This document shows, in pieces, positions 22,794-51,446 of a DNA stretch of 56,868 nucleotides. The position numbers and the translations under genes are program-made. The stretch spans positions 1-56,868 of the forward strand of contig CBDUVN010000003.1 of the NCBI GenBank assembly GCA_965370685.1, given 5' to 3'. Source of the stretch: an uncultured bacterium. GTDB taxonomy: Bacteria; Gemmatimonadota; Gemmatimonadetes; Palauibacterales; Palauibacteraceae. The notes beneath the pieces were generated by a model that saw nothing but the letters and a program-made list of their open reading frames with translations, made no database searches and was not told the DNA's origin. How positions within the stretch are numbered: the first letter of the stretch is position 1; every line of letters starts with the position of its first letter.

Positions 22794-24479
22794 ATGCTGA
22801 CGGAACTCCGAATCCGCAACTATGCAGTGATCGACGACATCAACGTCGAACTCGGCCCCGGGCTGACTGTCCTCACCGGTGAGACTGGTGCGGGCAAGTC
22901 GATCATCGTGGGTGCGCTGTCCCTCCTGCTCGGCGAACGAGCAGCGTCAGACGTGATCAGGGCGGGAGAGGACCGGGCGCTCGTCGAAGGCGTATTCGAT
23001 CTCCCGGACGATCCGGTGCTCCGGGAGCGCTGCGAAGAGCTGGGGATCGACCTGTCTGACGACTGTCTAATCCTCCGGCGCGAGCTGCAGCGGGAAGGCC
23101 GTAACCGCGCGTGGGTGAACGGGTCTCCGGCTACGGCGGGTCTGATCGGTGAGCTTGGTGGTGCGCTGGTCGATCTGCATGGGCAGCACGAGCATCAGGC
23201 ACTTCTGCGCCCCGCTCCGCAACGACGAATCGTGGATAGATTCGCCGGAGCCGAACGTCTCACGGCGGGTGTGAGGTCTGCATGGGAAGCACTTCGGGCC
23301 TCCCGGGTCGAGCTGGAGGAAGTCCGTCGCCGGGTAGCCGAAGCGCGGGAGAACGCGGTCCTCCTGAGGAGGAAGGCAAAAGAGATCGAGACAGCGGAAC
23401 TCAAGCCGGGCGAGGAAGACTCACTGTCGGCGGAGATCCGACGGCTCGAGCACTCCGAGGAGCTGCTGGCCCTTTCCGGCGAGTTGCACGAGGAGATCTA
23501 CGGCGGCGAAGGTGCCGTGGTGGACCGTCTCGGTGGTCTGCGGCGAGCGCTGGACTCCCTGCTGCGAATCGACCCCGAGGCGAGTGAGATCGAAGAGCTG
23601 TATGAGACGGGTCGGGCGACGCTGGATGAGCTCGGACGGCGGCTTCGCGATTATCGGTTCCGGGTCGAGCACGATCCCGGCCGGATGGCCTCGCTGCGCC
23701 AGCGACAGGACCTGCTGTATCGACTGCGTCGGAAGTACGGTGGTACACTGGCGGATGTGGAGGTTGAGGGACGCCGGGCAAGGGCCGAGCTCGATTCGAT
23801 CGAGACCTCGGCAGATGAGATCGAGCGGCTGGAAGTCGAGGAGCGACACCGCAGAGAGGCCCTGTCTGGACTCGCGAACGGGCTGGGGGCGGCCCGCCGA
23901 CAGGCCGCGGAGCGGCTCGAGCGGGAGGTGACGGAGCAGTTGCCGGACCTCGGAATGCCGGGTGGCCGGTTTCGCGTCGAGCTGACCTCACTGGACGAGC
24001 CGGGCCCGGACGGAGCAGAGACAATCCGGTTCCTGGTCAGCCTGAACCCTGGATTCGAGCCGGGCCCCCTGTCGCGCGTGGCTTCCGGCGGCGAGCTGAG
24101 CCGGGTGATGCTTGCCCTCAAGAGCGTGCTGGCTTCGGTGGACGGGGTCCCGAGCCTCGTGTTCGACGAGATCGATGCCGGGATCGGAGGGCGCATCGCT
24201 CATCACGTGGCCGGGCGCCTGGGAGAGGTCGCCGGCTCACACCAGGTGTTCGCGATCACGCACCTGGCCCAGATCGCAGCTCGGGCGGACGCGCACCTCC
24301 GCGTCGAGAAGGTGGAACAGGCCGGCCGGGCCGCGACCCGCCTGGTCCACCTTGAGGACGAAGCCCGCGTCGAGGAACTCGCTCGGATGCTGGGGGGGGA
24401 CCCGGAGAGCGACGTGTCGCTGAGACACGCGCGGGAACTGCTCCTTCGGTCCGTTGGAGACGAACCTCAGAACAGTTGA
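22794..24479 (+). CDS. recN: DNA repair protein RecN
   Basis: MLTELRIRNYAVIDD..., Walker A GETGAGKS, a long coiled coil, signature ASGGELSRVMLAL, and Walker B LVFDEIDAG. Confidence 0.95.
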   Translation: MLTELRIRNYAVIDDINVELGPGLTVLTGETGAGKSIIVGALSLLLGERAASDVIRAGEDRALVEGVFDLPDDPVLRERCEELGIDLSDDCLILRRELQREGRNRAWVNGSPATAGLIGELGGALVDLHGQHEHQALLRPAPQRRIVDRFAGAERLTAGVRSAWEALRASRVELEEVRRRVAEARENAVLLRRKAKEIETAELKPGEEDSLSAEIRRLEHSEELLALSGELHEEIYGGEGAVVDRLGGLRRALDSLLRIDPEASEIEELYETGRATLDELGRRLRDYRFRVEHDPGRMASLRQRQDLLYRLRRKYGGTLADVEVEGRRARAELDSIETSADEIERLEVEERHRREALSGLANGLGAARRQAAERLEREVTEQLPDLGMPGGRFRVELTSLDEPGPDGAETIRFLVSLNPGFEPGPLSRVASGGELSRVMLALKSVLASVDGVPSLVFDEIDAGIGGRIAHHVAGRLGEVAGSHQVFAITHLAQIAARADAHLRVEKVEQAGRAATRLVHLEDEARVEELARMLGGDPESDVSLRHARELLLRSVGDEPQNS

Positions 24480-26101
24480 ATCGGAATCCGCACGTTGAAC
24501 GTCATGATGTCGGATGCGGGGGTCTGTCCCCCTCCACCCGCAATCGATCCCTGCCACACGAGCGACATCTCCAGCGGGAAGTTGGCGATCCCTGCCACGT
24601 ACCGGGGCGTCGTCCGGTAGTAGGCTCCGACCCCCAACCGGTGACGGCTCTGACTCGACTCACTCGCCAGGGGTGAGGGGTCGGGAAGTCCCTCGCCCGT
24701 GTACTCGTCGGATCCCTTGCTGCGCCATTTGTACTCGATTCCGAGGGAAATCGTCTCGTTCATTCGGAACCGGGGAGACAACCGGAGCTCGAACACGTCC
24801 CCCAGGTTCCGGTTCACGGTCCGTTCCTGGGAAGTGTACGCGAACGGATGATCTGGATCGCGAACCCGCATCACGAGCTCGTCCTCGAGCTGCAGGGTGT
24901 ATTGCGCGCTGCCCACGATCCACAGCCAGCTCCCCACCTGTGCGTCCTGCCACAGGCCGAACTCCAGGTCGGTCGATCCGTCGCCGATCGGCTGTTGCAT
25001 GGCGCTCGAGGGAACGAGGTAGGGATCGGCATCGGCGGCCGACAGAGGGATCCTCACCCGCGCTCCCACCGTCGTTCGAAAGCGCACTCCCGAGCCTCGC
25101 AGGTCCGGCTCCCGGGTGGCCCGGAAGCGGTCTTCATCTACCTGCGTGATCGGCTCGAACGTGTCGAGCAGAAGAACGCGCAGCCCGATTTCCACCTCTC
25201 CTGGAGCCCAGCCGCGAGTCGTGTCGATCAGCGAGTCCACGCCGATCGGTGCGCCCCCGAGGATCCGCTGCAGATCCGAGCTCTGTGCGGAATCCGGGAG
25301 CGTCAACGTCGGCAGGCTGAGTCCGAACGCAGTGTACCCGGCGGACATTGCGTCGTAGCTGCCAGTCAGTTGAGCACCGGCAGCTGACGGGGCCGTCGGA
25401 AGCAGGTGTTCGCCGTTCACACGCGACTCCATCGCGAGCCCGAACTCCTGTGATTCCTGAAACAACTGCCGCGCGACGGCATCTTGCTCAGGCGTCAGCG
25501 TTCCTCCGTCGATAAGGGCGAGGAGGTCGGAGAGAGCCAGGGAGTAGGGGCCGAAGAACGCCTCCGGAACCGGAAACGCGGTGGAGGACGGGATGAAGTT
25601 GGCGGTGGTGGAATCGTAGGTGTAGGACGTCTGCGCCATTCCGCGCACGAGAGGGACCATCACATCCACGGCGACGCGGTTGAACAGGCCGAACGACAGC
25701 CCGAGCGGAATCCGGCGCATGTCCTTCGTGATCGTGCCGTAATCGAGATCACCCAGCGACACGTCCGAGGCGGAGAGGGAATCGTACCCGAGAGCTGCAG
25801 CATCTCGGTTCAGGTCCGCGAGAAGCGGATCCATGCCGGGGAACAACCGTTCAACGATCGGTCCCTCGTATTCCGAGTGAAGCGGTTCGCGGGAGCCGTC
25901 GCTCAAGGTCGCGCTTCCGAGCGCGAACTGGTCAGTCCAGATTTCCCAACTGGGAGAGATCTCGATCCACAACGCTCCGTGGTCCGGAATCCGCGCATCC
26001 CGATCATTCGCCTGGGCCCGCCCGCTCCCAGGGGAGGCGGCCAGAAGTCCGGCGGTCACGACGAGAACGAGGCCGGACCGGCGTTCGGGGATGGATCGCA
26101 T
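24467..26101 (-). CDS. large outer-membrane beta-barrel-like protein of unknown family
   Basis: This is the C-terminal 544 codons of the 1019-aa track ORF. The start is taken at MRSIPERRSGLVLVVTAGLLAASPGSGRAQA (signal peptide). The protein ends ...NVRIPIQLF with a terminal Phe, as in OMP beta-signals. Confidence 0.65.
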   Translation of the reverse strand: MRSIPERRSGLVLVVTAGLLAASPGSGRAQANDRDARIPDHGALWIEISPSWEIWTDQFALGSATLSDGSREPLHSEYEGPIVERLFPGMDPLLADLNRDAAALGYDSLSASDVSLGDLDYGTITKDMRRIPLGLSFGLFNRVAVDVMVPLVRGMAQTSYTYDSTTANFIPSSTAFPVPEAFFGPYSLALSDLLALIDGGTLTPEQDAVARQLFQESQEFGLAMESRVNGEHLLPTAPSAAGAQLTGSYDAMSAGYTAFGLSLPTLTLPDSAQSSDLQRILGGAPIGVDSLIDTTRGWAPGEVEIGLRVLLLDTFEPITQVDEDRFRATREPDLRGSGVRFRTTVGARVRIPLSAADADPYLVPSSAMQQPIGDGSTDLEFGLWQDAQVGSWLWIVGSAQYTLQLEDELVMRVRDPDHPFAYTSQERTVNRNLGDVFELRLSPRFRMNETISLGIEYKWRSKGSDEYTGEGLPDPSPLASESSQSRHRLGVGAYYRTTPRYVAGIANFPLEMSLVWQGSIAGGGGQTPASDIMTFNVRIPIQLF

Positions 26102-26256
26102 CGAATCTCCGGGCGCGTGTAAATGCGGCGTCGGACCCGAATATGCTCCCGGCTCCGAAGCGGGCACAAGTCGGCCGCGGAGCTGTCCGCTGGCCCCTTT
26201 CGTGTCTCCACCGCTCTCGATACCATACTGCCGCGTCCGATCCGGTCGGGCGTGAC

Positions 26257-26327
26257 GGCGCCGTGGCCGAGCGGCTAGGCAGGGGCCTGCAAAGCCCCCT
26301 ACTCCGGTTCGAATCCGGACGGCGCCT
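26257..26327 (+). tRNA. tRNA-Cys (anticodon GCA)
   Basis: Manual cloverleaf. The acceptor GGCGCCG pairs with CGGCGCC. The anticodon arm is GGGGC-CTGCAAA-GCCCC. The T arm is TCCGG-TTCGAAT-CCGGA. No CCA is encoded. Confidence 0.85.
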
Positions 26328-26401
26328 CTGGACCGGCCTTGCGGCCATCCCGCATCCGGGAGGCGGGGGCCACTCATCACTCCAGGCCTGGATTCCGACG
26401 C

Positions 26402-27511
26402 GTGAAGCGATTCATCACCCTCGACAACGTGCTGGCCGCGCTGCTGGTGTTCATCCCGGTGGCGATCGTGATGCGCTACGGCATGGGGATGGATGGCACC
26501 CCGGTCTTTCTCACTGCCGCGATCTCGATCATCCCGCTCGCGGGATACATGGGGCGCGCCACCGAGAGACTGGCGGAGCACGTCGGCGCGGGCGTGGGCG
26601 GACTGCTCAACGCGACGTTCGGCAACGCCGCCGAGTTGATCATCGCCGTCCTCGCCCTGCGGGCCGGCCTGCACGATGTAGTGAAGGCGTCGCTCACGGG
26701 CTCGATCATCGGCAACATCCTGCTCGTATTCGGGCTCAGCGCTCTCGTCGGTGGTCTCAAGCATCCCCCGCTCCAGCGATTCAATCGGACCGCTGCCAGC
26801 CTCGGCGCCACGATGCTCGTGCTGAGCGCGATCGGGCTGGTGATTCCCGCGATCTTCCATACGCTCGCCGGGGACGGGCACCTGATCGTCGAGCGGAATC
26901 TCAGCCTCGATATCTCGATCGTGCTGATGATCACCTACGTCCTCAGCCTGGTATTCAGCCTGCGGACGCATTCTGATCTCTACCTGGGTGCAGCACACGC
27001 GGATGATGAGGTGGAATCGCCCGGGCCCGGGAAGAAGGGGGGCAGGGAAGATGCCCTGCGGGCCCTGGGACTGCTCGTTCTCTCCGCCGCCGCCGTGGGG
27101 TTCATGTCCGAGATGCTGGTCGGCAGCCTGGAGCAGGCAGCCCACGAGCTCGGAATGACCGAGGTGTTCGTCGGTGTCATTCTGGTGGCCCTGGTCGGCA
27201 ACGCGGCCGAGCACTCGACGGCGGTGCTCATGGCGCTGAAGAACAAGATGGACCTGTCCGTGAACATCGCCCTCGGATCGTCGATTCAGATCGCGCTGTT
27301 CGTGGCACCGCTCATGGTGTTCGCGAGCTATTTCATCGGGCCGGAGCCGATGGATCTGCGATTCACCGGCCTCGAAGTCGTTGCCGTCGTGATGTCGGTC
27401 GGGATCATGGCGCTGGTGTCGCAGGACGGAGAGTCTCACTGGATGGAGGGCGTGCAACTGCTCGCCGTGTACGTCATGCTTGGTATCGCCTTCTACTTCC
27501 TTCCGGTGTAG
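26402..27511 (+). CDS. calcium/proton exchanger (CaCA family, ChaA/Cax type)
   Basis: Alpha-repeat motifs GNAAELII and GNAAEH are present, with about 11 hydrophobic segments. The start is taken at GTG 26402 ([10 protein letters not shown]...). The track start 26339 overlaps the tRNA 3' flank. Confidence 0.9.
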
Positions 27512-27688
27512 GCACGGGGCAACCACTCGCCCGCCGGTCGCGTCTAACGGTCTGGCCGGGTGTGTCGGGGCGTTTCCACCTCCCCGATCCGCTCAGCGGG
27601 ACGACGGATCCAGGTGTTGTCGTGAGGGAAGGATGATAGACATCGTACATCCTCCCGTAACTCCTTACCCGATCGGTGCAGGCCACCC

Positions 27689-40678: not shown

Positions 40679-40724
40679 GTACGTCCGGGATCTACACGTG
40701 GCTGTCGAAGGCGTAGGTTACGGT

Positions 40725-41606
40725 ATGAACGGAATGGTGCGACCGAATCCCATCTGCCCGCTGGCTCTGACGGGCCTTGCAGTACCGCTGCTGCTGCTGG
40801 TCGCCTGCGGCCCGGACGAAGACTCGGCCCGGGCCACGGATGTGCCGACCGTAGCAGTGTCGGTTCTCCCCATCGCGGGTATCGTGGACCGACTGCTGCC
40901 ACCCGGCGCTGCAGAGTTGCGGGTACTGGTCCCGACGGGCGCCTCTCCGCATTCGTTCGAACCGGGAATGGGGCAGCTCGCACTGATTCAACGCGCGGAT
41001 CTCGTGCTCGAAGTCGGGCACCCGGCCTTCGCATGGGAAAAGAACTGGCTGGACGGTCTGCTGGCCGGCACCCGGGCTGTCCGCATTCCTTTGTCCGCCG
41101 GGTGTGTGTGGCTCGAAGACGACCCGCACGTATGGCTCGACCCGGAATGCCTGCAGATTCTCTCTGTGCGGACGGCTGATGCTCTCGTCGAGCTGTTTCC
41201 GGAGCACTCGACGGAGATCCGAATTCGGCTCGAGGCGCTCCGACGGGAGATCACGGTGGTAGACGATTCAATGCGAGAGTTGCTGGCGGATCGGCGTGGG
41301 GCAGCGTTTCTCGCCCAGCACGCCGCCTGGGGGTACTTCGCGCGGGCGTACGGCCTCGAGCAGATCGCGATCCTCTCACATGGAACTGGTGACAGCGGTG
41401 CTGCCCGCCTGGCGAGCGTCATCGATCGGGCCCGGGCCGCGGGAATCCGGACCGTGTTCGTTCAACCGCAGTTCAGCACGGATGCCGCCCGCATGGTGGC
41501 AGGTGAGATCGGAGCCGGGATCAGGCCACTGGACCCGCTGCTCAGAGACCCGCTCGAGGCACTGCGCGAGACGACCGAAGCGGTGCTGGAGGCGACGGCT
41601 CCGTGA
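40725..41606 (+). CDS. znuA: metal (zinc/manganese) ABC transporter substrate-binding lipoprotein, ZnuA/TroA family
   Basis: Lipobox LLLVACG. Also SPHSFEP, DPHVWLDP and an operon with an ATPase and a permease. The start could be GTG 40698, ATG 40725 or ATG 40734. Confidence 0.85.
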   Translation: MNGMVRPNPICPLALTGLAVPLLLLVACGPDEDSARATDVPTVAVSVLPIAGIVDRLLPPGAAELRVLVPTGASPHSFEPGMGQLALIQRADLVLEVGHPAFAWEKNWLDGLLAGTRAVRIPLSAGCVWLEDDPHVWLDPECLQILSVRTADALVELFPEHSTEIRIRLEALRREITVVDDSMRELLADRRGAAFLAQHAAWGYFARAYGLEQIAILSHGTGDSGAARLASVIDRARAAGIRTVFVQPQFSTDAARMVAGEIGAGIRPLDPLLRDPLEALRETTEAVLEATAP

Positions 41607-42373
41607 GCGCCCACGGCACGCCGGCAATCGAAATCCGTGGCGTCGACGTCCGGTTCGGCGCGACAGCTGCTCTCGAAGCGATCGACCTTACCGTGGCGGA
41701 AGGCGACTATCTCGGGATCATCGGTCCCAATGCCGGCGGCAAGACCACGCTGCTCAAGGTCATGCTCGGTCTGATCGAGCCCGACCGAGGGGAAGTCCGG
41801 GTATTCGGCCAGCCGCCGCGAGAAGCACGGGGTCTGATCGGGTACGTGCCCCAGTATGCCCGGTTCGACAGCGACTTTCCGATCAGTGTGGCCGAAACGG
41901 TCGGCATGGGCCGGCTTGGACCTCGCACCCGAGCCGCGTCTCGCGCCCGCGACCGGGAAGCGGTGCGACAGGCCCTGGACACCGTGGAACTGTCTGACGT
42001 GGCGGATGTGCGAGTGGGCCGTCTGTCGGGCGGACAGATTCAGCGGGCCCTGATCGCCCGGGCGCTCGCATCGGAGCCGAGGGTCCTGCTTCTCGATGAG
42101 CCGACGGCGAGTCTCGACACGCACATCGGACGATCGGTATACGATCTGCTCGGCCGACTGGCGGACGAAATTCCGATCGTCCTGGTGTCGCATGATATCG
42201 GAGTCATCTCGCGGAAAGTGCGTACGATCGCCTGCCTCAACGTCCGTCTCCACTACCACCATTCCCGGGAGCTGACTCCCGAGATGGTGGAAGCAGCGTA
42301 CGGCTGCCCGGTAGATCTGGTCGCGCACGGAGTGCCCCACCGGGTGTTCGAGTCGCACGAGGACGGACGGTGA
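41603..42373 (+). CDS. znuC: metal ABC transporter ATP-binding protein
   Basis: Walker A GPNAGGKTT, signature LSGGQIQR, Walker B LLLDEP. Confidence 0.9.
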   Translation: MSAHGTPAIEIRGVDVRFGATAALEAIDLTVAEGDYLGIIGPNAGGKTTLLKVMLGLIEPDRGEVRVFGQPPREARGLIGYVPQYARFDSDFPISVAETVGMGRLGPRTRAASRARDREAVRQALDTVELSDVADVRVGRLSGGQIQRALIARALASEPRVLLLDEPTASLDTHIGRSVYDLLGRLADEIPIVLVSHDIGVISRKVRTIACLNVRLHYHHSRELTPEMVEAAYGCPVDLVAHGVPHRVFESHEDGR

Positions 42374-43209
42374 TCGGCGAGGCGCTGTCGTATCCGTTCT
42401 TCCAGCGGGCACTGGCCGCCGGGATTCTCGCCGCAGTCGCCTGCGGCATCATGGGCACGTTCGTGGTCGTCCGCCGGATCGCCTCGATCTCGGGCGGGTT
42501 GTCTCACGCGGCATTCGGAGGCGTGGGTCTCGGGTATCTGCTCGGCTTCGAGCCGATGCTCGGGGCGCTCGGGTTCGGGGTCCTCTCGGCGCTGGGCATC
42601 GGCGCGGCCGAACTCAAGCTCCGGCAGGGACTGGACACGTTGATCGCGATGGTCTGGGCTGTCGGCATGGCACTCGGAATCCTGTTCGTCTCCCTTGCGC
42701 CCGGGCAGGCCCCTGACCTTCTCGGGTACCTGTTCGGTAACATCCTGCTGGTGAGTCCGGGGTACGTGGCTCTCGTGGCCCTGCTCGACCTGGTGATCGT
42801 GGGAACGGTGCTGCTCCTGTTCCGGCGACTGCGGGCGGTGACGTTCGACGAGGAATTCGCCTGGGTAGTCGGTGTCCCTGTCGGGGCGTTGTTCCTGTTA
42901 CTCCTCACGCTCGTGGCGCTTACCGTGGTCGTGCTGATCCGAGTCGTCGGAGTGATCCTGGTGATCGCCCTGCTGACGATTCCGGCCGCGGTCGCCCGTC
43001 ACTGGACCGATCGACTCTCCCGGATGATGGTTCTCGCGGTGCTCACCGGAGCCGTGTCGATCGCCGCCGGGCTGTTCCTCACATTCGGGCTGTCGTCGGA
43101 ATTCGGAATCGATCTTCCGACGGGTCCGTCGATCATCCTACTGGCCGCTGCGGTGTACGGGGTCTCCGCCGTGGCACGGTCTCTCACCGGTCGGCTCCGC
43201 GGTTCCTGA
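42370..43209 (+). CDS. znuB: metal ABC transporter permease
   Basis: 279 aa with 8-9 hydrophobic segments in an ABC-3 type layout (FFQRALAAGILAA..., LLTIPAA). Confidence 0.9.
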   Translation: MIGEALSYPFFQRALAAGILAAVACGIMGTFVVVRRIASISGGLSHAAFGGVGLGYLLGFEPMLGALGFGVLSALGIGAAELKLRQGLDTLIAMVWAVGMALGILFVSLAPGQAPDLLGYLFGNILLVSPGYVALVALLDLVIVGTVLLLFRRLRAVTFDEEFAWVVGVPVGALFLLLLTLVALTVVVLIRVVGVILVIALLTIPAAVARHWTDRLSRMMVLAVLTGAVSIAAGLFLTFGLSSEFGIDLPTGPSIILLAAAVYGVSAVARSLTGRLRGS

Positions 43210-43393
43210 CAGCGCCTGAAACTCCCTCACAGGTCGGAGCGTAGAACAGAACGAGGGCCCGGGGGCGGCCGCCGGTGCGGGGCGGTTGGTCGGGGACGGG
43301 GGGCGAGCCGCCGACCGGACCTTCGATGACGGGTCGCTGCATCCAGGGGACGCGGTGGATCCGGATCGGAACGGACCAGGGGGGACGTGCTCG

Positions 43394-44491
43394 ATGAAGA
43401 GGAAGACGAAGATCTGGTTGGGTGTGCTGGGTGGTGCTGCACTTGTCGGGGGGGGCGGAGCCGTCATGGCCTTGCGTGGGAACGACGGCAGCTCGGAGCA
43501 CCGCACGGTCGAAGTCACGCGCGATTCGCTGGTCCAGAAGGCGCTGGCGGTAGGCAGCATCGAACCGGACGTGGAGATCGCGGTGAAGTCGCAGATCTCC
43601 GGTGTGGTCCGCAAGCTGTTCGTCGAGGAGGGAGAGTTCGTCAAGTCGGGCGAGCCCCTGCTGGAAGTCGCGCCGAACCCCACTCCGATCGAGCTGGCCG
43701 ACTCCAAGCGCCAGGTCGAGCTGCGCGAGATCGAGTTCGAGAACGTCTCGAAGGATGTAATTCGCAAACGTGAGCTGCGCAGCCGCGAATTCATCACGCA
43801 GGAAGAGCTCGAGCGAGCCGAGCGCGATTACGACCGGTCGCGGGTCCAGGTCCAGATGGCGAAGGAGCGGGTGGCACTGCTCGAGAAGGGCAGCGTCCAG
43901 ATCGGAAACCGGATAATCGAAGGCGTGATCCGGTCCCCGATCGATGGATTCGTGCTCGAGGCGCTTGTGGAGCAGGGTGACCCGGTAGTTCCGCTGTCGA
44001 ATTTCCAGGCGGGAACCGTCCTCATCACGATGGCGGCGATGAGTGATCTGCTGTTCCGCGGCACGGTAGACGAGATCGATGTCGGAAAGCTGACCGAAGG
44101 GATGCCGGCGGCGATCAAGATCGGCGCTCTGCCGGATGCGAAAGTCGAGGGTATCGTGTACTCGATCTCGCTCAAGGCGCGGACCGAGGACAACGCCACG
44201 GTGTTTCCGATCGAGATCACCCTCACGGAAATCCACGGGGTGAAACTGCGGGCCGGCTACTCGGCCAACGCGGACATCATCATCGAGCGTCGGTCTGACG
44301 TGCTGGTGATCCCCGAGCGCGTCGTCCGGTTCGAGGACGGCACCGCTCGCGTGACCGTGCTGCAACCCGACGGCACTACGGCCGAACGCGAGATCGAGAC
44401 AGGCCTGAGTGATGCGATCCAGGTCGAGGTGATCGAAGGGCTGGAGGAAGGCGACAGGATAGTCGAGCCGCCCCCGCGCGAGATCACCTGA
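43394..44491 (+). CDS. efflux transporter periplasmic adaptor subunit (MacA-like, HlyD family)
   Basis: The start was moved to ATG 43394 (MKRKTKIWLGVLGGAALVGGG anchor). It has a lipoyl-like ISGVVRKLFVEEGEFVKSGEPLLEV, a coiled coil, and RSPIDGFVLE. Confidence 0.85.
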   Translation: MKRKTKIWLGVLGGAALVGGGGAVMALRGNDGSSEHRTVEVTRDSLVQKALAVGSIEPDVEIAVKSQISGVVRKLFVEEGEFVKSGEPLLEVAPNPTPIELADSKRQVELREIEFENVSKDVIRKRELRSREFITQEELERAERDYDRSRVQVQMAKERVALLEKGSVQIGNRIIEGVIRSPIDGFVLEALVEQGDPVVPLSNFQAGTVLITMAAMSDLLFRGTVDEIDVGKLTEGMPAAIKIGALPDAKVEGIVYSISLKARTEDNATVFPIEITLTEIHGVKLRAGYSANADIIIERRSDVLVIPERVVRFEDGTARVTVLQPDGTTAEREIETGLSDAIQVEVIEGLEEGDRIVEPPPREIT

Positions 44492-44510
44492 GCCCGGCCG
44501 GAGTCGATCA

Positions 44511-45752
44511 ATGGGCCGCTTTCGAACCGTCGTGTCGGAATTCTGGAATGACATCCGGGCGCAGAAGCTCCGGACATCGCTGACGATCCTCGGGGTCACC
44601 TGGGGAACGGTGGCGGTCATCGTGCTTCTGGCGTTCGGCACCGGCCTGGAGCGTGCCACCCTGAAACGATTTCACGGTCTCGGCGACCGGGTCGTGATGC
44701 TGTTTGGCGGCACGACCACCAAGCCATTCCAGGGGTTTCCCGACGGTCGCGGAATTCGGCTCACGGCGGATGACGCGGTCATCCTGAAGCAACAGATCCC
44801 CGAGATCCAGCGGATCAGCCCCGAGTTCAGCCGGCGCGGTACGCCCGTACGCAACGGGCGGGCGATCATGAATCCCAACATTACCGGAGCATGGCCCGAA
44901 TACACGTTCATGCGGAACGTGATTCCGGATGTCGGCGGCCGGTTCCTCAACGACGAGGACCAGGCGAAGCGCAGACGGGTCGCGGTGCTGGGCAACCGGG
45001 TTCGCGACATGCTGTTCGAGGGAGAGGAGGAAGACGTCGTGGGGCGGCAGATCCTGATCGGTGCGACGCCGTTTACGATCATCGGAGTGATGAAGCCGAA
45101 GAACCAGAGCTCTTCGTACAACTCGCGAGACCGGGACCGGGTGTTCATTCCGGCGAGCACGCACCGGGCGATGTTCGGCGATCTTTACGTGAGCAACCTG
45201 GTCTACCAGACCGCGAATCCGGAGGACTCTCAGCGGGCAGAGGAGCAGGTCTACAAGATCCTCGGCGGAAAGTACCGCTTCGATCCGACTGACGAGGATG
45301 CGCTCGGAGTGTGGGACACGACCGAATTCGAGAAGATGTTCAGCTACCTGTTCCTCGCGTTCAACGCGTTCTTCGCGATCGTCGGCAGCTTCACGCTCAG
45401 CGTGGGCGGAATCGGCGTGGCCAACATCATGTACATCGTGGTGAAGGAGCGCACGAAGGAGATCGGTATCAAGCGTTCGGTGGGAGCGAAGAAAGCCGAC
45501 ATTCTGCGGCAGTTTTTTCTCGAGAGCACGAGCATCGTGCTGTTCGGGGCAGTGTTGGGGTTCATCCTGTCGCTGGGCGTCGTGCGACTCGTGCGATTCG
45601 GTGACATGGAGGAGTTCATCGGTGTGCCGGTGATCTCTCCGACCGTCGCGATCATCACGGTGTCGCTGCTTGGAGTGATCGCGGTGTTTGCCGGCTGGTT
45701 TCCCGCTCGCAAGGCGGCAAACCTGGATCCGGTCGAGTGCCTGAGGCAGTAG
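44511..45752 (+). CDS. ABC transporter permease, FtsX/MacB type
   Basis: 413 aa. N-terminus ...IRAQKLRTSLTILGVTWGTVAVI, a large periplasmic domain, and C-terminal FtsX 3-TM (KERTKEIGIKRSVGAKK..., PARKAANLDPVECLR). Confidence 0.9.
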   Translation: MGRFRTVVSEFWNDIRAQKLRTSLTILGVTWGTVAVIVLLAFGTGLERATLKRFHGLGDRVVMLFGGTTTKPFQGFPDGRGIRLTADDAVILKQQIPEIQRISPEFSRRGTPVRNGRAIMNPNITGAWPEYTFMRNVIPDVGGRFLNDEDQAKRRRVAVLGNRVRDMLFEGEEEDVVGRQILIGATPFTIIGVMKPKNQSSSYNSRDRDRVFIPASTHRAMFGDLYVSNLVYQTANPEDSQRAEEQVYKILGGKYRFDPTDEDALGVWDTTEFEKMFSYLFLAFNAFFAIVGSFTLSVGGIGVANIMYIVVKERTKEIGIKRSVGAKKADILRQFFLESTSIVLFGAVLGFILSLGVVRLVRFGDMEEFIGVPVISPTVAIITVSLLGVIAVFAGWFPARKAANLDPVECLRQ

Positions 45753-45765
45753 GAGGGCGGGGAGG

Positions 45766-47013
45766 ATGTGGAAGATCCTGCTGGAGGAGTTTTTCGGAGA
45801 TCTTCGCACGCAGAAGACTCGGACATTTCTCACGATGTTTTCGATCACGTGGGGAACGGTCGCCATCGTGCTGCTGCTCGCGTTCGGCGAAGGCCTGAAG
45901 CACCAGATCAGCACCGGATTGCTGAATGCCGGTGAGAAGATCTTCATGACCTTCGGTGGCGAGACCAGCAAGGAATTCGAGGGCCTGCCGCGCGGGCGCA
46001 GGATCAGGCTCACCGAGGAAGACATGGATCTCGTGGTCCGCTCGGTTGAGGACGTGGATATGGCGAGCCCGTCCTACGGCAGATGGGGCGTCACCCTGTC
46101 GTACGGAGACGTGAAGACCACTACGTACATGGAAGGTGTCCACCCGCCGTTTTCCGAATTGCGCAAGATGTTTCCCAGGACGGGCGGGCGGTTCATCCAC
46201 GAGCAGGATGTGAAGGAACGCCGGCGGGTGCTGTTTCTGGGTGACTCGATCGCCTACCGGCTGTTCGGCGATGAGGACCCGGTCGGGAAGACGCTCGACC
46301 TGGACGGTCTTCCGTATATCGTGATCGGCGTCATGCAGGGCAAGTTCCAGGACAGCATGAACAACGGTCCGGACGAGGAGCGGGCGATCATTCCGGCCTC
46401 GACTTTCAAGGCCGTGTATGGCTATCGCTACGTGAACCACATCCTGTTCCACCCGCGAAGCAAGGAGAGAGCCCCGCGGACAAAGGCGGAGATCTTCGAG
46501 GTCCTCGGGGCGAAGCACCGTTTTGACCCGACCGACGAACGCGCTTTACCGATGTGGGACTTCATCGAGAGCGAACAGGAGACGAAGAAGATCGGCACGG
46601 GTATCCAGATCTTTCTCGGGATGGTCGGCCTGTTTACGCTGCTCGTGGCAGGTGTCGGAATCGCGAATATCATGTACGTGGTGGTGAAGGAGCGCACGCA
46701 CGAGATCGGTGTGAAGCTGGCAGTCGGGGCGCGGAAAGCCCATATCAGGCGTCAGTTCGTGTTCGAGGCTCTGCTCGTGTCGCTGTTCGGCGGACTGATC
46801 GGACTCGGCGTGTCGGTCGGCATCGTGACACTCGTGAACATGATCCCGACCGAAGGGAACCCCGCGATGAACTATATCGCGAACCCGACGTTGTCATGGC
46901 CGATCACCCTTGGCTGCATGTCGATCCTGATGTTGATCGGTCTCGCCGCGGGCTATCTGCCGGCTCGTCGGGCCGCGAGCATCGATCCAGTGGAGTCGTT
47001 GCGCTACGAATAA
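45766..47013 (+). CDS. ABC transporter permease, FtsX/MacB type (second copy)
   Basis: 415 aa with the same architecture (LRTQKTRTFLTMFSITWGTVAIV, KERTHEIGVKLAVGARK, PARRAASIDPVESLR). Confidence 0.9.
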   Translation: MWKILLEEFFGDLRTQKTRTFLTMFSITWGTVAIVLLLAFGEGLKHQISTGLLNAGEKIFMTFGGETSKEFEGLPRGRRIRLTEEDMDLVVRSVEDVDMASPSYGRWGVTLSYGDVKTTTYMEGVHPPFSELRKMFPRTGGRFIHEQDVKERRRVLFLGDSIAYRLFGDEDPVGKTLDLDGLPYIVIGVMQGKFQDSMNNGPDEERAIIPASTFKAVYGYRYVNHILFHPRSKERAPRTKAEIFEVLGAKHRFDPTDERALPMWDFIESEQETKKIGTGIQIFLGMVGLFTLLVAGVGIANIMYVVVKERTHEIGVKLAVGARKAHIRRQFVFEALLVSLFGGLIGLGVSVGIVTLVNMIPTEGNPAMNYIANPTLSWPITLGCMSILMLIGLAAGYLPARRAASIDPVESLRYE

Positions 47014-47069
47014 ACCGCCCGCGGGTCCCGACGATCCGCGGCCAGTGCCCGGGAGGGTGAGGAGGGGAA

Positions 47070-47369
47070 GTGGAGGAATTCTTCATTGCGCTGGTACCTA
47101 TAACGATGTTCCTGACGATTGGCGGGGTCCTCGTGCTGCGTCCGCTGACGAAGCGGCTCGGATTGCTGATAGAAGCATCGGCGAAATCGCGAGGCACGAA
47201 CGCCGACGAACAACTGCAGATCGAGCACCTCCGGCTGATGATCGACACACAGAACCTGAAGCTCGAGCAGCTGGAGCAGAAGCTCTCGTTCACCGAGTCG
47301 CTGCTGGAGTCGCGGACCTCGGCCTGGCTCGCCTCCAGGCCCGGTGTCGCCCCGCGCGAGCTGTCCTGA
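47070..47369 (+). CDS. small membrane protein with C-terminal coiled coil (PspB-like architecture)
   Basis: 99 aa with a GTG start preceded by GAGGAGG and high GC3. It has one N-terminal TM (FFIALVPITMFLTIGGVLVL), then a heptad region QIEHLRLMIDTQNLKLEQLEQKL. Confidence 0.6.
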   Translation: MEEFFIALVPITMFLTIGGVLVLRPLTKRLGLLIEASAKSRGTNADEQLQIEHLRLMIDTQNLKLEQLEQKLSFTESLLESRTSAWLASRPGVAPRELS

Positions 47370-47374
47370 GGCGT

Positions 47375-48046
47375 TCAGGGGGAGATGAAGTACTGCAACC
47401 CTGCGTAGAGAGTGAATGCGGATCCCTGCAACGCACTGTCAGGGAGGGTGTCTGAGACGGGTGTGCCATCATCGACCCAGTGCCCGTCGATCTGGTAGTC
47501 GCTCATGAACAACCAGTCAAAGCCGCCGCCCACGTCGGCCGCAAGCTTCTTCGACAGGGGAATCTCGACTCCGAGTCCCGCTCCGACCTCGAATCCGCTC
47601 CGCGTACGAGTTCCCACGATCTCCCTGCCACATCTGGGAAAGCCGCACGGTTGGTCGTCGGAGAGCCGAGTCCAGCCCAGGCGAAGGCTGGCGTACGGCA
47701 CCATTTTCGACTCCAGGTCGACGAATTTCCACGTGCCGAACCCGAACAGGCTCAGCTTGCCGAGGGTTCCGTCGGCGTAGTCGAATCCCATCCACGAATA
47801 CGCGCCGCCCGCGCCGATCTGGACCGGAGTATCTCCGAAGTCGTAGAATGCCGTGCCCTGCAGGCGGAGGCCTCCGCTGATGCTGTCGCCGACCTCACCG
47901 CCGAGGAAGGTGTAGCCACCTGTGAAACCGAGGCCGAACCCTGAGTGTGTCAGGTCATCGGAGCCGGGAAAACGCTGGGCGAAACCGGTGCTTGCCACGC
48001 AGATGACGGCCACCACCGTAAGTGTGATCAACCGCCTGGCTCGCAT
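47375..48046 (-). CDS. outer-membrane beta-barrel protein
   Basis: 223 aa. The signal peptide is MRARRLITLTVVAVICVASTGFAQ. It has Gly/aromatic-rich alternating strands and a C-terminal ...LYAGLQYFISP. Confidence 0.75.
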   Translation of the reverse strand: MRARRLITLTVVAVICVASTGFAQRFPGSDDLTHSGFGLGFTGGYTFLGGEVGDSISGGLRLQGTAFYDFGDTPVQIGAGGAYSWMGFDYADGTLGKLSLFGFGTWKFVDLESKMVPYASLRLGWTRLSDDQPCGFPRCGREIVGTRTRSGFEVGAGLGVEIPLSKKLAADVGGGFDWLFMSDYQIDGHWVDDGTPVSDTLPDSALQGSAFTLYAGLQYFISP

Positions 48047-48252
48047 CGCTCGACTCCTTGATAGGGAGAACCGGCTTCAACGTCGGGCCCGACAGCGAGA
48101 CTCGCGCCGCTGGTCGTCGATGTCAACTGGACTGGAGGTGCTTGCCGCTCCGCCTTGTAGCACCGAGTTTCGCATCTGGCCCTTTGTGGAGACTTACCCG
48201 GCCGCTGTCCCGGGGAGCCTCCAGGCGACACGCGCCTTCTCGAAGTGGAGTC

Positions 48253-50343
48253 ATGGACGAAGAACCGCGGGACGACGAAGACAGGAAACCGATCTGGCAG
48301 GCGTCCGGGGAGGAACGACAGATCGATGCCGATGCATACCACATCTGGACTCCTCGTCCGGTGGTTCGAAGCGTGTTCTGGAGGCCGGACCCCGAGCCGC
48401 CGCGCGATGCCGTTTCCGGCTCCTACGAAGTGTTCCTGGACCAGCGGGCTTTCGTCGGTATGCACGAGCACGTCTGGAAAGCCGACCCGGGCCAGAGCCG
48501 GTTCGGGTACCTTATCGGAGACCTGTGCGAAGATCCGGCGGCCAGTCGCAGGTTCGTGATCATCAGGGCCGCAGTTCCGTCCCGCTTCCCGTTCCAGGAG
48601 TCCGGACCCGAGCAGATCGCCGCGGAAGCATCCGTCGCCCTGCAGCTCGAGGTGGAGCGCCGCCGCGGAGTGCTCGTCGGATGGTATCACTCGCACCCTT
48701 CTGGAGATGCCGTGCTGTCGCCGGAGGACGTGGCGACGCACGATCGCCTGTTTGCCGATCCGTGGCAGGTCGCGTTCCTGTTCATCTCTGATCCGCGTGC
48801 TCCTGCCGGGGCTTGTTTCCGGCGGACGCCGGACGGGTTCGACGGGGAGTTGCGTCTCCCGTTCTACGAAATGGTGTCCAACGAGTCACTCCTGGCGAAG
48901 GGGGTCAGACGGTCTCGAGTCGATTGGGAGAACGTCTCGACGCTGGACGGGATTCGATCGGAACCACCTCCGCGTCCTGAACCTCAGCCACTACCAGATC
49001 CGCAGCCGGACACAGACCTCCTTCCCGACGTGGAATCGGAACCGGAAACTGAAGTAGAGCCGGAGCGATCGGTCCCGCCGGCGGACGACGCACCAGCAGC
49101 CGTGGAAGAGACTGCGGCCGATCTGCCCGGCGACGCAGCAGAGGAGATCCAGGAAGAAATTCTGGAAGAGGTCCCGGAGGAAATTCCGGACGAGGTCCCG
49201 GAGGAAATCCAGGAAGAGATCCACGAAGAGATCCACGAAGAGGTCGGGGTCGAGGACCTGGCCGGCGAAGACGACTCTCCGGAGCCTGTCCGGGATGCTG
49301 AACTCGAATCGCCCACCGTCGAGTCTGATGCGACCGAGTTGAGCGCGGTGGACTCGAGTGAGGCGGAAGCGGTGGTGGAAGAGGAAGACGAGGAAGACGA
49401 TGACCTGGACTTCGACGCCCTGATCGCAGAGGTCGAGACCGCTGGGTTGTCGGACGATGTCGAGGAATTGACGGCCGAGGAACTCGAGGCCATTTACGAT
49501 CTCGATTTCGAGTTGGAGTCCGAGCCGGAGACCGTGCCGACACCGGACCCGGACGCTTCTCCTGAGGGGGAGCTTGAATTCGTTCCGGAGCCGGTGGAGT
49601 CGGAGCCGGATATGGTGGACCCAGACCCGCTGGTTCCGTACGAGGCACTGGGCGACGTCGAGTCCGAACTGGCTTCAGATACATTGGTCGAGGTCGAGCC
49701 GTCGATCTCTCCGGCTGAAGAAATGACACCCAGCCCGGTCCCGGACAAACAGAGAAAGCTCCGAAACCGGATTCTCGCGGCGCTGGGAGTCGTGATCGCG
49801 CTCGGGGTTGTCGGGGCACTTGTCCAGGTCCTGGTCCTGGACGCGGACGGCGGTGCTGATGGGGCCGGAGCTGTGACGCCCGCCGCCGTTGACCTTTCGG
49901 TCGGCGAACCTCCCGCCGCGGTCGGCGGCCCCGGGGAGGATGGCTCGGCCGGCGTGGTCGAGGATCCCTCTGAAGTTCAGCTGCCGGACGGCGCGGGGAC
50001 GGGAGATGAGGGAACTGACTCCGCCAAAGTCGTAGTGCCGCCCCCGGTCTCGGAGCAGCCCGTCTCGCTGGAGAATCTGCAGACTCTCAGCGACCAGGTC
50101 CTGGAGTCGATCAGCACGTACTACGGCAGGGATGGGGCCTACTCGAGCGGCGAGATCGGGTGCCCGGAGCTGCAGTCGTCCTTCGTGGAGGTCATGGATT
50201 CATGGATCGACTACAGTACGCGGGGCAAGGCCGGCTGGCAGGGCCGACTCCCGCCGGATCTCGTGGAGCGGGACGAGCGTCTGTACCTCGGAGTCCAGGA
50301 CGTGGAGCGCTTGTTCGAGGCCTCCTCCTGTCCGCGGCCCTGA
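48253..50343 (+). CDS. membrane-anchored JAMM/MPN+ domain protein with hyper-acidic linker and extracytoplasmic C-terminal domain
   Basis: The JAMM motif GWYHSHPSGDAVLSPEDV lies at 48688..48729. A linker of about 330 aa is rich in D/E/P. A single TM ILAALGVVIALGVVGALVQVLVL lies at 49771..49839. The Cys-containing tail is about 170 aa. The start is taken at ATG 48253 because GC3 bias is absent upstream. Confidence 0.8.
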   Translation: MDEEPRDDEDRKPIWQASGEERQIDADAYHIWTPRPVVRSVFWRPDPEPPRDAVSGSYEVFLDQRAFVGMHEHVWKADPGQSRFGYLIGDLCEDPAASRRFVIIRAAVPSRFPFQESGPEQIAAEASVALQLEVERRRGVLVGWYHSHPSGDAVLSPEDVATHDRLFADPWQVAFLFISDPRAPAGACFRRTPDGFDGELRLPFYEMVSNESLLAKGVRRSRVDWENVSTLDGIRSEPPPRPEPQPLPDPQPDTDLLPDVESEPETEVEPERSVPPADDAPAAVEETAADLPGDAAEEIQEEILEEVPEEIPDEVPEEIQEEIHEEIHEEVGVEDLAGEDDSPEPVRDAELESPTVESDATELSAVDSSEAEAVVEEEDEEDDDLDFDALIAEVETAGLSDDVEELTAEELEAIYDLDFELESEPETVPTPDPDASPEGELEFVPEPVESEPDMVDPDPLVPYEALGDVESELASDTLVEVEPSISPAEEMTPSPVPDKQRKLRNRILAALGVVIALGVVGALVQVLVLDADGGADGAGAVTPAAVDLSVGEPPAAVGGPGEDGSAGVVEDPSEVQLPDGAGTGDEGTDSAKVVVPPPVSEQPVSLENLQTLSDQVLESISTYYGRDGAYSSGEIGCPELQSSFVEVMDSWIDYSTRGKAGWQGRLPPDLVERDERLYLGVQDVERLFEASSCPRP
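49141..49248 (+). repeat. nine tandem 12-nt (EE-[IV]-x) coding repeats inside the JAMM gene
   Basis: The units are GAGGAGATCCAG, GAAGAAATTCTG, GAAGAGGTCCCG, GAGGAAATTCCG, GACGAGGTCCCG, GAGGAAATCCAG, GAAGAGATCCAC, GAAGAGATCCAC, GAAGAGGTCGGG. Confidence 0.9.
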
Positions 50344-51446
50344 CGGCGGTATCCGCATGGCTGGCCGTCGTCCCTCTGCTCGCTCAGGCGCCTGACGAAG
50401 TAGCCGGGGTAGCCGGGGCGCAACGTCCCCGGGCTTCCGACCTGGGAATCCACATCGGGTCCTTTCCATCGGGGTCGCTCGACGCGATCACGGACGTTCG
50501 GGGAGTCCGCGTCGGGCATTTGACCCTGATTCGCGGAGACTCGATCCGTACGGGTGTCACCGCGATTCTCCCACACGGACGGGACCTGTTCGCCGAACGA
50601 GTGCGTGCAGCGATCGTCGTCGGGAACGGATTCGGGAAGCTCATCGGTTCGACGCAGGTCGGAGAACTGGGCGTGATCGAGACGCCGATCCTGCTCACGG
50701 GCACCCTCAACGTCTGGCGCGTAGCGGATGCGCTCGTGGACACGCTGCTGGCGACTCCGGGATACGAGGATGTCCGTTCGATCAATCCCGTCGTCGGTGA
50801 GACGAACGACGGCTGGCTGAGCGATATTCGCTCGCGTCCGCTTGGCGGGGCGGAAGTCCGAGCGGCGCTCCGCGCGGCGACGGATGGGCCGGTCGAGGAG
50901 GGAAGCGTGGGAGCCGGAACGGGGACGACCGCTCTCGGCTTCAAGGGCGGCATCGGATCGGCTTCCCGTGTCGTGCCGGCCGAGTACGGCGGGTATACGG
51001 TTGGAGTCCTGGTCCAGACCAACTTCGGCGGGTCGCTGGTAGTGGACGGAATCCCAGTGGGCCGAATTCTGGCCCGGGACAGGGAGCGGGAGCCCTCAGA
51101 TGCCCGGGAAGGCGGCTCGATCATGATCGTCGTGGCCACGGACGCCCCGCTCGATGTACGGAGCCTCGAGCGTCTCGCCTTCCGCGCTTTCGGGGGGCTG
51201 GCCCGCACGGGAGCGGCCTTTTCACATGGCTCCGGCGACTACGCGATCGCGTTCACCACCGATCGCGATCCGCCCCCGAGTCTCGACGGGAGCGTGGCTA
51301 CGGTCCTGTTCATGGCCGTGCAGCAGGCGACGGAACAGGCCATCCTGAATTCACTGTTCGGCGCGACATCTGTTACCGGGTTCCGCGGCCACCGGGCAGA
51401 GGCACTCCCGATCGACGCCGTGCGGGAGATCCTGCGCTCGCAGTAG
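50202..51446 (+). CDS. P1-family (DmpA/S58-type) aminopeptidase, secreted
   Basis: ITDVRGVRVGHLTL, TGVTAIL, GETNDGWL, GSVGAGTGTTALGFKGGIGSAS. A signal-like LLLSAALTAVSAWLAVVPLLAQA is present. The only in-frame canonical starts (ATG 50202, GTG 50160) lie inside the upstream gene. Confidence 0.8.
   Translation: MDRLQYAGQGRLAGPTPAGSRGAGRASVPRSPGRGALVRGLLLSAALTAVSAWLAVVPLLAQAPDEVAGVAGAQRPRASDLGIHIGSFPSGSLDAITDVRGVRVGHLTLIRGDSIRTGVTAILPHGRDLFAERVRAAIVVGNGFGKLIGSTQVGELGVIETPILLTGTLNVWRVADALVDTLLATPGYEDVRSINPVVGETNDGWLSDIRSRPLGGAEVRAALRAATDGPVEEGSVGAGTGTTALGFKGGIGSASRVVPAEYGGYTVGVLVQTNFGGSLVVDGIPVGRILARDREREPSDAREGGSIMIVVATDAPLDVRSLERLAFRAFGGLARTGAAFSHGSGDYAIAFTTDRDPPPSLDGSVATVLFMAVQQATEQAILNSLFGATSVTGFRGHRAEALPIDAVREILRSQ

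Follow-up and report, generated by a model that had tools for sequence, protein, structure and literature searches.

A membrane-anchored MPN-domain family of Gemmatimonadota with a conserved JAMM zinc site and a variable catalytic glutamate position

Does a bacterial protein that carries the zinc ligands of the JAMM/MPN+ metalloproteases, and that sits in the membrane with no ubiquitin-like (Ubl) conjugation gene beside it, still work as a protease? The question is raised by a 696-amino-acid (aa) protein encoded on a contig of an uncultured member of the Palauibacteraceae (Gemmatimonadota; assembly GCA_965370685.1, contig CBDUVN010000003.1, positions 1 to 56,868), a stretch of 56,868 nucleotides (nt) that was analysed as a whole and is called here the window. 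The initial annotation of the gene, made from the sequence alone, had described an orphan, membrane-anchored JAMM/MPN+ metalloprotease with an acidic linker and a periplasmic Cys-containing domain. We find instead that the protein is a member of a conserved family, widespread in Gemmatimonadota, whose MPN domain keeps the zinc ligands and lacks a constrained general-base Glu. We tentatively propose that it is a zinc-binding pseudo- or weakly active isopeptidase acting as an adaptor across the envelope.

The fold of the N-terminal domain is that of the JAMM/MPN+ class. The hidden Markov model (HMM) searches called for in the initial annotation gave scores above the cut-off for both Pfam JAB (PF01398; 31.1 bits against 22.5) and Prok-JAB (PF14464; 27.4 bits against 25), each spanning aa 58-175. 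An AlphaFold2 (AF2) model of aa 1-238, built from 26 family sequences, had a predicted local distance difference test (pLDDT) score of 82 and a predicted template modelling score of 0.81, with low confidence for residues 1-34. Foldseek comparison of the model with the PDB returned BRCC36, Rpn11, CSN5 and CsRpn11 as top matches (E ~1e-8 to 1e-7, probability 1.00), and the family sequence profile found the same proteins (E = 4e-6 to 3e-5). Matches to tail-component, RadC and JAB proteins in BFVD were far weaker (E 4e-4 to 0.1) than those to the eukaryote-type MPN domains in PDB. The query had no match in PHROGs or in PADLOC, JAB and BilC models included, and in NCBIfam it matched only desampylase, with 19 bits where the cut-off is 130.

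The zinc site lies exactly where it had first been placed, and it is conserved throughout the family. In 232 family representatives aligned to the profile, the ligands were kept at ~90-97% (H146 in 212/229, H148 in 206/228 and D159 in 222/229), position 156 was Ser or Thr in 197/229, and the motif H-x-H-x7-S/T-x2-D persisted down to ~25-30% identity. The general base did not follow this pattern. In the HMM alignment, the catalytic Glu of BRCC36 (EVMG) falls on Ser82 of the query (QSRFG), bearing out the caveat that had been attached to this residue, and the Glu expected in the ExxG motif at the start of strand beta2 is absent. Over 228 representatives, this column reads Glu in only 52, and Gly, Ser, Thr or Ala in 48, 41, 30 and 29, respectively. 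Among the 197 proteins with an intact H-H-D triad, 39 have Glu82, 83 have some Asp or Glu at positions 80-82, and 75, including the query, have neither residue there. Even where synteny is identical, orthologues differ in this column (E, S, T, A or R), indicating that it is not under the selection expected of a general base. Lacking the Glu, the domain is not a canonical MPN+, contrary to the label it had been given; with its metal ligands kept, it is not a classical MPN- either; judged on its residues, its protease activity is doubtful.

Other conserved residues were considered as sources of the base. The HEH stretch upstream (aa 71-73), to which the initial annotation had pointed, was rejected, because E72 is variable (E in 84, Q in 41, D in 34 and R in 30 representatives), although H73 is conserved. 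Both H73 and H163 are ~90% conserved, and Glu206 is invariant among the aligned representatives (Table 1). All three also occur in relatives that retain the canonical Glu (see below); they are therefore features of the wider subfamily and not obvious replacements for it. The C92-E93-D/C94 stretch of GDLCEDP is nearly invariant too, but it would lie 8-12 residues further along strand beta2, off the Glu position, and was judged an unlikely base source.

The MPN domain carries family-specific N- and C-terminal extensions. Within the former, the sequence AYHIWTPRP (aa 28-36; 48334-48360), followed by RS..W.P, is nearly invariant in the family, and its proline/arginine/tryptophan core recurs in the tandem-JAB relatives described below. 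Its conservation despite low confidence in the AF2 model suggests an element that depends on a partner or on the metal.

A profile search of 1.84 billion cluster representatives returned 158 matches at E < 1e-30 and 626 at E < 1e-10. The first homology search found 93 proteins (540-920 aa), nearly all laid out like the query and with two tail Cys, no more and no fewer. A transmembrane (TM) helix after the MPN domain was present in 182 of the 197 near-full-length representatives, the ending F..S.C.RP in 168, and both in 159. In species-representative genomes, a scan seeded with one family alignment (A1), a broad full-length alignment (A3) being too divergent for seeding, detected at least 374 stretches encoding a relative; the best 80 of these were almost all labelled Gemmatimonadota, Gemmatimonadales or Candidatus Palauibacterales, and several metagenome-assembled genomes (MAGs) held two or three paralogues. 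The protein is thus not an orphan. We define the family by an extended MPN domain, a variable linker, one TM helix and a two-Cys bundle ending in F..S.C.RP, all of which the query has.

The exact 696-aa protein is present in a public collection, and the N-termini of homologues agree with a start at ATG 48253, the closest ones beginning at the equivalent residue of an enclosing plus-strand open reading frame (ORF) that spans 48058..50343. It had been held to be without known description, and so we found it: no NCBIfam, PADLOC or PHROG family covers it, Pfam recognises only JAB, source names are 'hypothetical' or 'RPN8/RPN11', and our literature search found neither a membrane-anchored JAB protein in Gemmatimonadota nor a family joining MPN domain, TM helix and a bundle ending in CPRP. 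What was known hitherto is the fold and the motif; we found no description of the combination of an extended eukaryote-type MPN domain without Glu, a membrane anchor, a CPRP three-helix bundle and wide conservation in Gemmatimonadota.

Outside the family, the closest relatives carry two MPN domains in tandem and are likewise anchored in the membrane; bacterial JAMM domains are thus not confined to soluble proteins, the kind to which the initial annotation had referred. In the alignments shown, the domains of these tandem-JAB proteins match positions ~32-235 of the family profile, at E = 1e-26 to 1e-32 per domain, and six of the eight proteins examined have a TM helix behind the MPN region, the same succession as in the query. 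They belong to the same extended MPN subfamily, sharing the motifs GWYHSHP, T/xH..F and PFYE, and in the three printed alignments both MPN domains contain the canonical ExxG and HSHPxMxxFLSxxD; one relative, P0168, matches the PADLOC models JAB and BilC. We inspected three of their loci (L088, L089 and L090), of which only L088 has a named source, an Acidobacteriota. All three hold genes for a ThiF protein (E1), a YukD-like double Ubl, a UQ_con E2, the tandem-JAB membrane protein and a VWA protein. Prok-RING is found on the VWA gene in two of them (L089 and L090), where there are also two repeat-domain proteins. FHA and T2SSE-type ATPase genes belong to the operons of L088 (5415-14937) and L089 (5239-16523), both flanked by Tad pilus genes; L090 ends before its FHA and ATPase genes would be reached. 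From its gene content, this operon looks like a complete membrane-associated ubiquitination-like system. Operons with E1, E2, RING and JAB genes have been mentioned as uncharacterised in Acidobacteria, Planctomycetes and Actinobacteria (PMC4197634).

No such operon accompanies the query. Pfam annotation found no ThiF, E2 or Ubl gene in the window, in agreement with the initial annotation, and tblastn with E1, Ubl and E2 queries found nothing either there or in the 80 loci of Gemmatimonadota that the genome scan had retrieved. A search with the E2 gave no match with a source named as Gemmatimonadota, which is not conclusive, since only 4 of the 99 matches carried an organism name.

Behind the MPN domain, the protein consists of an acidic linker, one TM helix, a periplasmic spacer and a three-helix bundle. 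The linker is as acidic and disordered as first described (37% D/E, 14% P and 1.2% K/R; net charge -93), with the expected EE[IV]x repeats in ~6.8 copies, but it is shorter than the ~330 residues then allotted to it (Table 1). Family members differ in how long the linker is and what it is made of: marine-clade linkers are acidic as well as Pro-rich, those of soil Gemmatimonadales mostly Pro-rich. Hyper-acidity is therefore a trait of the lineage and not of the family. A single TM helix, with a hydropathy peak of 2.73, was confirmed at aa 507-529 (49771..49839), between DKQRKLRNR on its N-side and DADGGADG on its C-side. This charge distribution and the two invariant Cys of the tail fit an N-in/C-out topology, which would place the MPN domain and its tether in the cytoplasm and the Cys-containing domain in the periplasm, the arrangement proposed from the start.

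The 167 aa that follow the helix match in size and predicted location the single domain of ~170 aa with three Cys that had been expected, but they comprise ~80 aa of low complexity, which align poorly across the family, and an 87-aa bundle. The AF2 model of the last 100 aa consists of three long helices (pLDDT 94); the tail contains two Cys only, C637 and C693, both invariant, and the bundle ends in the motif F..S.CPRP. It has no significant match in PDB by fold or sequence and no Pfam family, and nothing in it shows the sensing role suggested earlier. All matches of a homology search with the bundle were short, and no full-length protein of other architecture turned up among them; six of these short matches were read, and they begin in the TM segment or the bundle, lack the full N-terminal region, and look like truncated gene calls.

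Table 1. Position of the gene, its parts and its immediate neighbours in the window (OMP, outer membrane protein).
Feature	Coordinates	Strand	Basis
Whole gene, bitopic membrane protein (696 aa plus stop)	48253..50343	+	ATG 48253; ORF list
Extended MPN domain, predicted cytoplasmic, aa 1-238	48253..48966	+	Pfam JAB, Prok-JAB, AF2, Foldseek
Ser82, aligned with the general-base Glu (ExxG) of canonical JAMM sites	48496..48498	+	HMM alignment to BRCC36
Zinc-ligand motif H146-S-H148-x7-S156-x2-D159, HSHPSGDAVLSPED, aa 146-159	48688..48729	+	Read from sequence
Glu206, in the family-specific C-terminal extension (LPFYE)	48868..48870	+	Glu in 222/222 aligned representatives
Disordered linker, predicted cytoplasmic, aa 239-497 (259 aa)	48967..49743	+	Composition
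Tandem repeat, 12-nt and 24-nt period, encoding EE[IV]x units	49144..49245	+	Tandem Repeats Finder
Basic juxtamembrane stretch DKQRKLRNR, aa 498-506, plus TM helix	49744..49839	+	Hydropathy, charge
Low-complexity spacer, predicted periplasmic, aa 530-609, rich in G, A, D and P	49840..50079	+	Composition
Three-helix bundle, predicted periplasmic, aa 610-696	50080..50340	+	AF2 pLDDT 94, invariant columns
OMP beta-barrel-like gene, 223 aa, divergent	47375..48046	-	Pfam OMP_b-brl 24 bits, below 28.7 cut-off
Peptidase_S58 (DmpA-like) gene, signal-peptide-like N-terminus, start codon uncertain	50202..51446	+	Pfam E = 1e-106

The window is ordinary chromosome, with guaA, purL, infC, pheST, rny, folD, nadK, recN, RND pumps, znuABC and macAB. 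Around the MPN gene, the order is a 99-aa gene, the divergent OMP-like gene, the MPN gene, the S58 peptidase gene, a convergent acyltransferase gene, nhaA and an ETF-QO gene. The two immediate neighbours are those first described, although the score of the OMP-like gene is below its cut-off and the overlap reported for the peptidase gene depends on where the latter starts. Only ATG 50202 and GTG 50160 are available in its frame, giving overlaps with the MPN gene of 142 or 184 nt, compared with 1-16 nt in the related loci L005 and L007; the larger overlap in the window may be due to an unusual start codon or to an extension confined to this lineage. Between ATG 50202 and the signal-peptide-like segment, the S58 frame contains no ATG, GTG or TTG (window 50160-50343). 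We found no regulatory RNA near the MPN gene with Rfam, and a promoter and terminator scan around it gave signals at background level only.

All through the marine clade, whose MPN domains are as little as ~55% identical, this gene order is kept together with the whole flanking block, and because the entire block is equally kept, we regard the order of neighbours as synteny by descent. The OMP-like gene occurs upstream only in marine-clade loci, nearly all of which have it where the upstream flank is available, and a deeper relative, P0106, has an S58 gene ~260 nt downstream. By contrast, 44 soil-clade loci contain none of the neighbour genes of the window, and thus neither OMP nor S58. In the annotated soil-clade example (L044), a gene of the beta-eliminating-lyase family stands on one side of it and dnaX-ybaB-recR on the other; ~30-40 other soil-clade loci have the same flanking genes, and ~30 share the downstream one (dnaX in L044). 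OMP and S58 are thus a matter of lineage-level synteny, in the marine clade and P0106, and not of a family-wide partnership, and the conservation check suggested for them succeeds only within those limits.

Further neighbourhoods accompany the divergent copies. Second or third paralogues within the same MAGs (L037, L038, L039 and L041) are 44-48% identical in the MPN domain; the neighbours of the one in L037 are a gene with an RF-1 domain (ArfB-like) and one for a ChaN-like haem-binding protein, and ORFs of matching size and placement occur in L038 and L039. A variant represented by P0090 and P0091 (L003, 7725-10733; L032, 6001 onward) differs in its linker, a long A/E/R-rich repeat (AAEEEAARRAAEL...), and in its periplasmic end, which is apparently not helical; in L003, P0091 directly follows a Flp/Fap pilin gene. 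Two short contigs (L036 and L043) assigned to an 'Akkermansiaceae' MAG carry a gene of the Gemmatimonadota type. L043, the contig with an upstream flank, shows the Gemmatimonadota synteny of FtsX, a small gene and OMP, and their presence in this MAG is likely binning contamination.

We favour, at a probability of about 0.45, the view that the protein is a zinc-binding pseudo- or weakly active isopeptidase that serves as a membrane-tethered, envelope-spanning adaptor and descends from a deubiquitinase-like ancestor. That ancestor would have been a membrane-anchored enzyme, a descent supported by the relatives with canonical Glu in E1/Ubl/E2 operons. Carried on a long, flexible, strongly anionic and fast-evolving disordered tether, the MPN cleft would bind, rather than efficiently cleave, a cytoplasmic client, probably a protein tail; the periplasmic bundle, presumably stapled by a disulfide, would hold an envelope partner, and the protein would in this way couple the two compartments. 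Several observations weigh against this proposal. Ligands of the type H-x-H...D plus S/T156 are typical of active MPN+ enzymes, and known MPN- scaffolds have lost these residues; their retention here would argue for a working active site. Some Asp or Glu that might act as a base is present at positions 80-82 in ~62% of the proteins with an intact triad, and the invariant E206 could, with H73 and H163, complete a non-canonical site. In addition, no partner gene is conserved across the family, and since neighbourhoods differ between clades no client can be proposed; no binding partner is identified on either side of the membrane.

These same points feed the main rival, that of an active membrane-tethered JAMM-type zinc peptidase or isopeptidase with a non-canonical base, which we consider rather doubtful, though it comes next after our proposal. 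Candidates for the base would be an acid of the neighbouring loop in other members, E206, H73, H163 or a residue of the substrate or a partner, and the substrate would be cytoplasmic and encoded elsewhere, for instance an unlinked Ubl or a peptide tag. Retaining the zinc motif is what active enzymes do, both Pfam JAB models recognise the domain, its closest structures are active deubiquitinases, and its nearest outside relatives look canonical and adjoin E1, E2 and Ubl genes; the conservation of E206, H73 and H163 points the same way. However, the query has Ser82 for the Glu and no acidic residue at 80-82, the three conserved residues are also kept where the canonical Glu is present, no Ubl, E1 or E2 gene lies in the window or the related loci, and no defence JAB model of PADLOC matches. 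The missing and unconstrained Glu also weakens the initial suggestion of regulated proteolysis, which presupposes catalysis and in which a periplasmic sensor would switch the cytoplasmic protease on or off. A bitopic protein with conserved globular domains on both sides of the membrane would suit such signalling, as would the strict co-occurrence of the N- and C-terminal domains across the family and the failure to find the bundle in a full-length protein of another architecture. Yet a 259-aa tether and an 80-aa spacer (~340 disordered residues) would be poor conduits for a conformational signal, we found no conserved regulator, sigma factor or substrate gene nearby, and the three-helix bundle has no ligand-binding relatives; we hold this model to be improbable.

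A functional module with the neighbours, in which the bundle would dock or regulate the possibly co-transcribed and secreted S58 aminopeptidase, the divergent OMP, or both, appears slightly less probable still. The peptidase gene runs in the same direction as the MPN gene and, in marine-clade loci with enough downstream sequence, adjoins or overlaps the stop codon of the latter (a few lie up to ~240 nt away). It is found again behind P0106. Nearly every marine-clade locus with an upstream flank has the OMP-like gene there in divergent orientation. The whole 15-kb block (znuABC, macAB, nhaA and the ETF-QO gene) is equally syntenic, however, so adjacency may be mere inheritance; both neighbours are missing from the 44 soil-clade loci and absent from most of the phylum, and the paralogues and the P0091 variant have other neighbours again. 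We also considered a frameshift or assembly error that fused separate genes, which low-complexity repeats could hide, and some database entries are indeed split fragments. An uninterrupted architecture in ~160 independent cluster representatives and dozens of MAG loci effectively refutes this explanation, and we treat the ORF as one gene.

Among known systems, the eukaryote-type MPN+ deubiquitinases BRCC36, Rpn11, CSN5 and AMSH, and CsRpn11 of Caldiarchaeum subterraneum, have identical H-x-H-x7-S-x2-D spacing and provide the best profile and fold matches. Unlike them, the query has Ser at the catalytic Glu position, additional conserved extensions at both ends of the domain and a long acidic membrane tether, and it lacks a nearby Ubl, E1, E2 or MPN- partner gene. 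The tandem-JAB proteins differ in having two MPN domains with canonical Glu, large unrelated extracytoplasmic regions and a Ubl-conjugation operon, against one MPN domain without Glu, a CPRP three-helix bundle and no such operon in the query. Affinity in sequence or structure to RadC and to the MPN proteins of phage tails (lambda K-type) was not found. The MPN domains of Rpn8, CSN6, Abraxas and Prp8 are MPN- pseudo-enzyme scaffolds, which bind proteins without canonical catalysis and have lost the zinc ligands; they are the functional analogy we favour, with the difference that the query retains these ligands. In overall topology, and in the low-complexity spacers on each side of the membrane, the protein recalls RodZ and anti-sigma factors, envelope adaptors that cross the membrane once, between an N-domain in the cytoplasm and a C-domain in the periplasm, but its domains are unrelated to theirs, and no gene for MreB, a sigma factor or another defining partner was found nearby. 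The JAB fold and zinc motif are also common to CBASS Cap3, BilC, BubC and the sulfur-carrier enzymes Mec+ and QbsD, whose models do not match the query and whose E1, E2, Ubl or sulfur-carrier genes are not found alongside it. These enzymes are soluble and encoded beside E1 or Ubl genes (see also PMC11601603).

The family described here is a conserved bacterial one with a membrane-anchored, eukaryote-type MPN domain, free of an E1/E2/Ubl operon, in which the zinc site is kept while the Glu varies. The proteasome lid, the COP9 signalosome and BRISC all owe their catalysis to MPN/JAMM domains, and the family bears on the question of how these arose from prokaryotic systems. If inactive, the protein would be a natural zinc-retaining pseudo-deubiquitinase, a state not represented among classical MPN- proteins; if active, it would represent a catalytic mechanism new to JAMM enzymes. 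In both cases it is an unstudied envelope-spanning component, widespread in a major phylum of soils and sediments. The family also points to membrane-bound Ubl-conjugation operons, at least one of them from Acidobacteriota, as its kin. A bolder reading, which we think unlikely, is that of a widely conserved core gene of Gemmatimonadota for a tethered deubiquitinase-like enzyme with a rewired site, acting on an unrecognised cytoplasmic tag or substrate under periplasmic control. It would imply a housekeeping, envelope-coupled deconjugation step of the ubiquitin type in bacteria, and a surviving link from the E1/E2/RING/JAB systems that prokaryotes encode in operons to dispersed, eukaryote-like ones.

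Two further observations concern the rest of the window. Upstream of the MPN gene, positions 40698-47369 hold znuA/ABC/permease genes for zinc uptake, macA-macB-like efflux genes and the 99-aa gene, which encodes a membrane/coiled-coil protein. Marine-clade loci with a long enough flank keep this order, and its location beside a gene with a zinc site is probably simple synteny. Farther away, an ORF of 1019 aa on the minus strand (24467-27526) has no match in Pfam or PHROGs and contains, on the opposite strand, a tRNA-Cys(GCA) gene (26257-26328, +); it is probably not one real gene, leaving ~3 kb effectively unannotated.

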